A stretch of 64,000 nt of DNA, taken from Escherichia phage vB_EcoM_FJ1. The position numbers were made by a program, and so were the translations under genes. The notes beneath the pieces were generated by a model. It searched no databases, was not told where the DNA came from, and saw nothing but the letters and a program-made list of their open reading frames with translations. The stretch lies in the sequence record MZ170040.1. The stretch is one strand, 5' to 3'. Positions 59,287-60,626 of this stretch are shown piece by piece. Every line of letters begins with the position of its first letter. Position 1 is the stretch's first letter.

Positions 59287-60066
59287 TTAATTAAAAATAT
59301 ATACTTCATCAGTTCCATTCTTTTCTTTGGAATGATATATGTTAAAGACGTATTTTTTATTAAGATGCTTAACATTATATTTTTTAGACCATTCTTTAAG
59401 AAGAGTGTTTTCCTTTCCGTGATGCTCTAAAACATTCGACAGCCCAAATTTTATTCCTCTGTCATTTAAAGAATCTAAAAGATTTAAAAGGTCTTTTTCT
59501 TCTTCTTCTGACCAAAATTTATTATAATCAGCAACTGTTATGAGATACGGAGGATCTACATATACAAAATCGCCGTCTAGAATTTTGACATCTTTAAAAT
59601 GCAATGAACTAAAGATTATTTTATCACAATTTTGCTTAAAGTGATTAAAGCGTTTTTCACTATTTTTGTTTATAGTTCTTTTTCCAAACGGAGTAGTAAA
59701 ATTTCCTTTATCGTTTATACGAATCATATTACTAAATCCATGAAAATGAAGAACATAAAGTAAAAGAGGATCTCTAGTTTTATTATAATCTTCACGTAAT
59801 TTCAAAAACTCTTCTTTTGATGTTTTTGATAGTTTGTATTGCTTTATTACTTTTAAAACGTCATCCCATGATACATTAATAAGACGCTTATACATTTCAA
59901 TAATTGGTTCTTGAATATCATTAGCCAATACAGGACCATTGACGTTCAAAGACACTGATAAACCTCCACAAAATAAATCCACGAATCTGTCATATTTTGG
60001 AAAATGAGGCTTAAGTTCAGGTAATAATGACTGTTTATTACCTGTATACGCGATAGCTCCTAGCAT
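59287..60066 (-). CDS. dam: DNA adenine methyltransferase (GATC-type)
   Basis: 259 aa; motif [12 protein letters not shown] and catalytic DPPY. Confidence 0.9.
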
Positions 60067-60626
60067 TATATTCTCTCATTTATTGCAGCAAAAAACGAAT
60101 TATATAATTCTTCATCATATGTATTTGATAGTAATACTAACACGTTTTGTGATTTAGCATATTCATTAAACCTTGCTTGGATAGTTGGATTATCAGTAAA
60201 TGATTCTCTTTTTGTCCATTTATTACGTGGATAATATCCGCATGGCAAAAAATCTAATATCATCAATGACACGGGGTTTTCAGTTTTTGTGTATTCTTTT
60301 AATTTCTCTTTATCTTCTAAATATATTCCAACCGAATCAATAGCTGTACCTCCACCAACTTGATGTTTAATTTCAATTATATGCTTTTTACCGTTGCGAG
60401 AAATAACAATATCAAATCTTCTAGTACGCTTCTTAGTTATAAAATTAGAGCAAAACAAATTATTTGATTTTTCAGTATCATCGGTTAAAACCATTTTTTC
60501 TTGATAACTAACTGAACAATCAGTGAAATATTCTTTTACTTTATTAAGTATGAAATTTTCAACTACGGCAGATATTTTATATGAATCTCCGTTTAAAGCC
60601 ATTTCATGCACAATTTTATTAATCAT
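60066..60626 (-). CDS. PD-(D/E)xK nuclease-like protein, translationally coupled to dam
   Basis: 186 aa; [21 protein letters not shown] fits D-x(12)-E-x-K; stop TAA overlaps dam ATG (TAATG); own SD and early promoter. Confidence 0.55.

Follow-up and report, generated by a model that had tools for sequence, protein, structure and literature searches.

The Dam proteins of phages T2 and T4 are established GATC methylases (as also noted in the T4 record) and have been model DNA methyltransferases for decades, while the benefit of Dam to the phage remained unclear. In bacteria, restriction-modification (R-M) systems of the DpnII/MboI/LlaDCHI type pair a restriction endonuclease of Pfam family PF04556 with a DpnM-type methylase, with GATC as the target. 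Here we describe an open reading frame (ORF) of 186 amino acids (aa) that precedes dam in Escherichia phage vB_EcoM_FJ1 (sequence record MZ170040.1), within an analysed stretch of 64,000 nucleotides called the window below. The locus belongs to a Tequatrovirus (T4-like) early region with the order gene 56, dam, 186-aa ORF, a 66-aa plus-strand ORF, primase gene 61, 61.1, 61.2, spackle, 61.4, dmd and 41. With a probability that we put at about 50%, the ORF and dam form a compact type II R-M-like cassette, in which Dam would restrain the nuclease by methylating GATC. From the sequence we infer the nuclease activity of the ORF product, its GATC specificity, its blockage by N6-methyladenine (m6A) and its biological target.

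A PD-(D/E)xK nuclease core had been read from the letters of the ORF in a preliminary description of this DNA, which proposed a fold search as a check. The AlphaFold2 model of the 186-aa protein (7-sequence alignment) reached a predicted local distance difference test score of 80.7 and a predicted template modelling (TM) score of 0.80, and PD-(D/E)xK-type nuclease domains topped its Foldseek matches in the PDB, as that description had expected. The predicted structure contained the alpha/beta restriction-endonuclease-like core fold of this superfamily. The D-x12-E-x-K core (D72, E85, K87) was present as claimed. Its three residues and E23, which lies on the long helix before them, did not vary among the eight sequences of an alignment (A3) spanning 32-100% identity. 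Since this invariance extended to members just 32-33% identical to the window protein, the motif is no chance match. The family thereby displays the D...(D/E)-x-K signature with an upstream helix glutamate that characterizes the superfamily, and the assignment of the ORF product to the PD-(D/E)xK restriction-endonuclease fold is supported by both model and motif.

Sequence searches returned little else. The 186-aa protein had no significant Pfam, NCBIfam or PDB sequence match (noise only in NCBIfam, and zero matches when either the protein or the family profile was searched directly against the PDB), and the sole convincing match in a BFVD structure search was the ortholog of Dhakavirus MX01. 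Public sources that give the protein a name call it "hypothetical" or uncharacterised everywhere, except for the UniRef entry of the T2 copy ("Head outer capsid protein"). A DNA-binding protein with a nuclease fold but no catalytic activity, which would modulate Dam targeting or expression, would suit a product half the size of DpnII enzymes, and tight translational coupling could serve the formation of a stoichiometric complex. This seems very remote, as the complete E...D...E-x-K constellation is invariant in the family, which is unusual for inactivated nuclease folds, and the Dam proteins of T4 and T2 are generally known to function without the ORF product.

The R-M-like reading draws first on the pairing of the two genes. 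The ORF lies directly upstream of dam, as described from the sequence, and base 60066 is common to its stop codon and the dam ATG, giving TAATG on the minus strand (1-nt overlap). An exhaustive hidden Markov model search of 1.84 billion representative proteins yielded 11 family matches. None was added when the search was repeated with a profile broadened to take in the most distant members, so that the family counts about 11 members, and these profile searches found no sequences bridging to cellular restriction endonucleases. Every context examined was a T4-like phage. In 8/8 lineages examined (the window, Dhakavirus MX01, one Klebsiella phage and five metagenomic lineages, including P0011 and P0013 at 32-33% identity) the ORF stood directly upstream of a D12-class (Dam-type) methylase gene, nuclease stop and methylase start overlapping or abutting by 0-35 nt. 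Endonuclease and methyltransferase genes thus adjoin with conserved pairing, as in type II R-M systems, and the R-M-like arrangement first noticed in this one phage holds in all the lineages examined.

The two proteins also diverged together, nuclease identity falling from 64 to 38% while that of the methylase fell from 76 to 54%. In Klebsiella phage SmallBear the pair was located between denB and ndd, the other site being between genes 61 and 56; in one further locus (L020) it adjoined a gene read as rIIA-like from sequence alone. Because the pair occupies different genomic sites, nuclease and methylase genes move as a unit. No case of the ORF without a methylase gene was found among the contexts and records examined. 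The reverse state, a methylase gene without an intact nuclease gene, occurred in T4 (deletion), KarlGJung (residues 122-179 left) and G29 (frameshift). Such asymmetric dependence, in which the methylase may stand alone and the endonuclease may not, is that of R-M systems, here seen in few independent lineages. Repeated loss of the nuclease with retention of the methylase, and never the reverse, fits what would be expected of a toxin and its antidote.

A second, unrelated nuclease and methylase pair was observed in another T4-like phage, Klebsiella phage KP182 (OM337876.1; L025, 2577-4029, minus strand). Its 210-aa nuclease-like ORF has a D-x12-D-x-K core (HKVDIVASKNGETLVIDVK) and a sub-threshold Pfam Hjc match (E 7e-4), and overlaps a 278-aa D12 methylase gene by 17 nt, the pair being just upstream of a T4-type Dam. 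It was rejected as a member of the ORF family (hhalign E 0.069).

Distribution was counted over about 507 Tequatrovirus-type records, dam being scored as present at 95% identity or more. About 181-184 of these records contained dam. The full ORF accompanied it in about 148 (about 80% of the dam-positive records), including T2, whose dam GenBank entry of 1988 (M22342) already contains the full ORF, unannotated. Examples of wild isolates with an intact cassette are ACG-C40, HY03 and slur14. About 36 records, including T4, RB55 and RB59, had dam with an 88-bp remnant of the ORF (a match to the first 88 query bases, which are the ORF 3' end). Neither gene was found in about 320 records (about 64% of Tequatroviruses), such as RB7 and PP01, in which gene 56 directly adjoins the 66-aa ORF ("dam.1") and gene 61. 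The preliminary description had held the arrangement to be atypical of T-even phages, which these counts contradict, and had asked whether the dam-61 junction is normally empty; presence or absence instead concerns the whole promoter-ORF-dam cassette.

It had also placed dam immediately before gene 61 in T4 and deduced an insertion into a conserved junction. The neighbours were correct and the immediate contact was not, as a 309-bp gap in T4 holds the 88-bp remnant and the unannotated 66-aa plus-strand ORF. The direction of change is reversed as well: T4, whose dam shares about 97.7% nucleotide identity with that of the window, retains just the final 88 bp of the ORF, about 539 bp having gone from between two TGAT microrepeats, and is therefore a deletion derivative. 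The loss covers the cassette promoter and ORF codons 1 to about 158. Within the remnant, T4 (L001 ~3160-3175; window ~60100-60112) reads TGTATAAT on the minus strand against TATATAAT in the window. Read from the alignment, the T4 version resembles an extended -10 element, placed some 35-45 nt before dam, and might compensate for the deleted promoter.

Decayed ORF copies beside an intact dam comprised, besides KarlGJung and G29, those of T2 and ES19, with C-terminal frameshifts. A T6 run in ORF codons 177-179 (window 60077-60082, minus strand) appeared as a frameshift hotspot, the C-termini reading ...SFLLQ in T2 and SV76 (181 aa), ...SFFCCNK in ES19 (183 aa) and ...SFFLLQ in KarlGJung. In T2 and SV76 the frameshift at this run uncouples the ORF stop from the dam ATG.

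On the gene 56 side (window 59018-59266), identity to RB7 and PP01 (L016/L017) was 72-75% at the nucleotide level, while the gene 61 side stayed at 92-95%; the cassette therefore travels with a distinct gene 56 allele. This bears on the possibility of a homing-type selfish endonuclease, which would cut the empty 56/61 junction, or a site nearby, in cassette-less relatives at co-infection, repair then copying the cassette in with dam as a passenger or as protector of the cut site. A homing-endonuclease-like arrangement had been named in the preliminary description as one option. The ORF was never free-standing, as it always preceded a methylase gene, whereas homing endonucleases are stand-alone genes with no cognate methylase, and the polymorphism here is that of the whole cassette. 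In addition, the different locus in Klebsiella phages implies no single homing site, and the divergence of gene 56 between cassette-positive and cassette-negative phages is unlike recent precise homing. A homing-type enzyme is in our view distinctly unlikely.

The R-M-like reading was next compared with known GATC enzymes. DpnII (PF04556) was the top Pfam family for four of eight members (E 0.0045 for the window protein, 8.3e-5 for the best member), and the PADLOC REase_II model covered the DpnII-matching segment (E 9e-5). Real DpnII-family genes were fetched from plasmids, including LlaDCHI of pSRQ700 (a DpnII sequence served as bait only), and seven of the enzymes were aligned for profile-profile comparison. 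With hhalign the ORF family matched them at E 2.2e-4 with a score of 35.5, ORF residues 21-111 aligning onto DpnII 148-235; 200 column-shuffled controls scored 14.5 on average (standard deviation 2.8, maximum 25.3) and the reversed alignment 13.6. E23, D72 and E85 paired with the invariant E150, D195 and E208 of the DpnII-family enzymes, and under a greedy setting the whole ORF was colinear with their C-terminal ~165 residues. A solved DpnII-family structure was sought for fold comparison and none exists. The ORF core appears remotely related to the C-terminal half of DpnII/MboI-type GATC enzymes, a link that is weak but consistent and reproducible.

The methylases pointed the same way. Window Dam matched the M1 methylases of DpnII-type plasmid systems by BLASTP (E 1e-8 to 3e-17) and was homologous to the DpnM-type methylase of every fetched system encoding one, so that the phage nuclease has the Dam/DpnM-type D12 partner of the DpnII family. 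As the nuclease core appears related to enzymes that partner Dam homologs in bacteria, both comparisons lead in the R-M direction. Also conceivable is an active PD-(D/E)xK nuclease with a target unconnected to GATC and Dam. Such an enzyme could be non-specific or structure-specific, could attack host or foreign DNA or serve recombination, and would simply share an operon with dam. The structural matches were generic (Can2, VC1899, Bax1, McrC, Mus81) with low TM-scores, the DpnII recognition half is missing from the ORF, and T4-like phages have many accessory nucleases. We consider it unlikely because a Dam-type pairing with overlapping frames, kept at two locations and in eight lineages whose nucleases are as little as 32% identical, is hard to explain without functional dependence, and because the best sequence-profile matches are type II restriction endonucleases with Dam-homolog partners.

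The control signals of the putative R-M-like cassette are listed with the other features in Table 1. The ORF's own Shine-Dalgarno sequence and early promoter, noticed earlier, were both present. A promoter scan recovered the latter as TTTACT-17-TATTAT, and promoter-like hexamer pairs in this AT-rich stretch showed no enrichment (7 found against 7.8 expected in shuffles). A (G)TTTAC-N17-extended -10 element ending 25-29 nt before the ATG recurred in five other cassettes (T2 and the four divergent ones of Dhakavirus MX01, one Klebsiella phage and two metagenomic relatives). As the scan statistics alone were not significant, the promoter was judged by this positional conservation, and the element is treated as a phylogenetic footprint. 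A terminator-like hairpin with a T-run (window 60732-60751, minus strand) was observed past the end of gene 61 and ahead of the cassette promoter, within the dam.1 coding sequence of the opposite strand; it suggests that ORF and dam may be a transcription unit of their own.

Table 1. Features of the ORF-dam locus, in window coordinates
Feature	Position	Strand	Description
dam ("M")	59287..60066	-	259 aa; D12-class N6-adenine DNA methyltransferase; Pfam PF02086 (MethyltransfD12), E 6.5e-51
186-aa ORF ("R")	60066..60626	-	ATG start; phrog_8706, function unknown; predicted compact PD-(D/E)xK restriction-endonuclease-fold protein
Catalytic core codons D72...E85-x-K87	60366..60413	-	D72-x12-E85-x-K87
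E23 codon	60558-60560	-	upstream helix Glu, on the preceding long helix
Shine-Dalgarno GAGGA of the 186-aa ORF	60634..60638	-	7 nt before the ATG; read from sequence
Cassette promoter, T4-early type	60652..60681	-	GTTTAC (60676-60681), 18-nt spacer, TATTAT (60652-60657) preceded by TGG (TGn extended -10)
Segment missing in T4 (~539 bp)	60154..60692		flanked by TGAT at 60150-60153 and 60689-60692
Putative promoter-R-M cassette, approximate extent	59267..60705	-	missing as a block from dam-less Tequatroviruses (RB7, PP01); BLAST boundaries
66-aa ORF "dam.1" (name in RB-phage records)	60717-60917	+	predicted membrane protein; phrog_2024, E 8.5e-31; opposite to the strand of the early genes

Among the neighbouring genes, the dam.1 ORF was about 94% identical in T4, yet the RefSeq record of T4 does not annotate it. 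Ahead of it stands ATAAATA (~60691-60697), which resembles a late promoter, and an 8-bp promoter is annotated there in the Lutter record. Where T4 has segF, which codes for a GIY-YIG homing endonuclease, the window contains a 229-aa ORF (58047-58736, minus strand) that overlaps the 3' end of gene 56 and had no Pfam match at E <=1.

In the proposed mechanism the cassette would be self-contained, with its own early promoter, a PD-(D/E)xK endonuclease and a translationally coupled Dam, and both proteins would be made early from one transcript. Dam would methylate GATC in the phage's own DNA, and the nuclease would cut DNA with unmarked GATC sites. The methylase is placed as antidote because pairing and overlap are conserved, the promoter is the cassette's own, the genes co-diverge and move as a unit, and loss is one-way; GATC is the most economical guess for the nuclease target since it is what T4 and T2 Dam methylate. 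Candidate targets would be under-methylated genomes of co-infecting or superinfecting phages, dam-less Tequatroviruses among them, and the cassette could serve either as a weapon between phages or as a selfish addiction module. By its deletion T4 would have lost the nuclease, leaving an orphan Dam.

Several points weigh against this proposal. Enterobacterial hosts are Dam-positive and T-even DNA carries glucosylated hydroxymethylcytosine (glucosyl-hmC), which blocks most type II enzymes, so that neither host nor T-even DNA is an obvious substrate. The DpnII match of the window protein scored 16.8 bits against a Pfam gathering cut-off of 23, and all members fell below threshold; by Pfam's criteria the ORF is not a member of the DpnII family. 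The hhalign probability of the match was just 45%, and DpnII N210 was aligned where the ORF family has K87. The ORF starts at about DpnII position 135-150 and lacks the N-terminal ~145 residues, including the invariant S-x-x-R-K-x-R-x-G segment, with nothing equivalent to the G...G..S..RK.R.G motif; with this half missing, sequence specificity is not inferable by homology. The T2 copy of the ORF has a frameshifted C-terminus. Finally, the statement that the nuclease never occurs without the methylase rests on about seven independent lineages, and physical linkage alone could explain it.

Since the nuclease seems unable to do without the methylase, phage-type DNA may, by inference only, be a substrate, which would direct attention to other phages as targets, notably the dam-less Tequatrovirus majority. 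In its strongest form, the proposal would be a working GATC R-M cassette in T-even phages, whose nuclease cuts glucosyl-hmC DNA without m6A and which serves as phage-against-phage weapon and addiction module against dam-less Tequatroviruses and other under-methylated co-infecting genomes. This extension is possible but doubtful.

The opposite specificity was also weighed, that of a methylation-dependent, DpnI-like nuclease cutting Dam-methylated, cytosine-containing host or plasmid DNA and sparing the glucosyl-hmC DNA of the phage. In its favour, the host chromosome already carries G6mATC methylation, and T-even phages are generally known to break down DNA that contains cytosine. Likewise, a single locus in streptococci harbours either a DpnI or a DpnII cassette (PMC12707154). 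A methylated host would nevertheless make a phage Dam needless, yet the ORF was never found without a methylase gene; the protein has no winged-helix m6A reader domain, and DpnI appeared neither in the profile searches nor among the fold-search matches listed. A DpnI-like role therefore seems highly improbable, and a nuclease restrained by Dam methylation stays the preferred reading. In the window, GATC was by far the most depleted 4-bp palindrome: an order-2 Markov model predicted about 210 sites and 73 were present (observed/expected 0.35; next lowest CTAG, 0.65). Dam and MutH have been held responsible for the avoidance of GATC by phages of enterobacteria. Cassette-positive and cassette-negative genomes, at about 95% identity and with free recombination, are too alike for their GATC depletion to discriminate.

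In the searchable literature, neither the ORF protein nor an R-M cassette in T-even phages was found described. Methylases carried by phages are well known, as are R-M systems; what is new is a predicted half-size nuclease with a DpnII-like core, which virulent hmC phages keep tied to Dam and which T4 has lost. Should the ORF product be the cognate nuclease of Dam, the latter would be no orphan but the protective half of an R-M cassette lost by laboratory T4, a half-size DpnII-like enzyme would be added to the restriction-enzyme repertoire, and a virulent phage would be using restriction-modification, possibly against other phages, its nuclease perhaps accepting hypermodified (hmC) DNA. A role as phage-against-phage weapon would supply the long-missing reason for the Dam of T2 and T4, and dam would then be essential in nuclease-positive wild isolates and dispensable in T4. 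The ORF-dam cassette opens the long-standing puzzle of what Dam does for T-even phages to experiment, through dam essentiality in nuclease carriers, toxicity in dam-negative cells and exclusion of cassette-negative phages in co-infection.

Compared with known systems, the Seg and Mob families of free-standing homing endonucleases in T-even phages (SegF, for instance, beside gene 56) are likewise optional between conserved early genes and patchy among close relatives. They have GIY-YIG or HNH folds, whereas the ORF product has a predicted PD-(D/E)xK fold, and a methylase gene accompanied the ORF in every case, the pair occurring at two loci. MunI (PDB 1d02), an EcoRI-class type IIP enzyme with the target CAATTG, is 13% identical to the ORF product, with no sequence-level relationship detected. 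The "orphan" Dam of T4 and T2 is the same gene as the window dam; its orphan state in T4 results from the deletion, while most dam-positive Tequatrovirus records have the nuclease gene before dam. DpnII/MboI/LlaDCHI-type systems appear to have the catalytic core in common with the ORF, with a shared signature (K/R)RFD-VI ... IE-x-(K/N) ... GG(S/T), and a Haloarcula member displays the gene order of the phage cassette, nuclease then methylase. They differ in size (275-305 aa for the enzymes, 186 aa for the ORF product), in methylase number (two in 4/6 of the methylase-bearing plasmid systems fetched, one in the phage cassette) and in setting, which is a bacterial chromosome or plasmid for the DpnII-type systems and a virulent hmC phage for the cassette described here.
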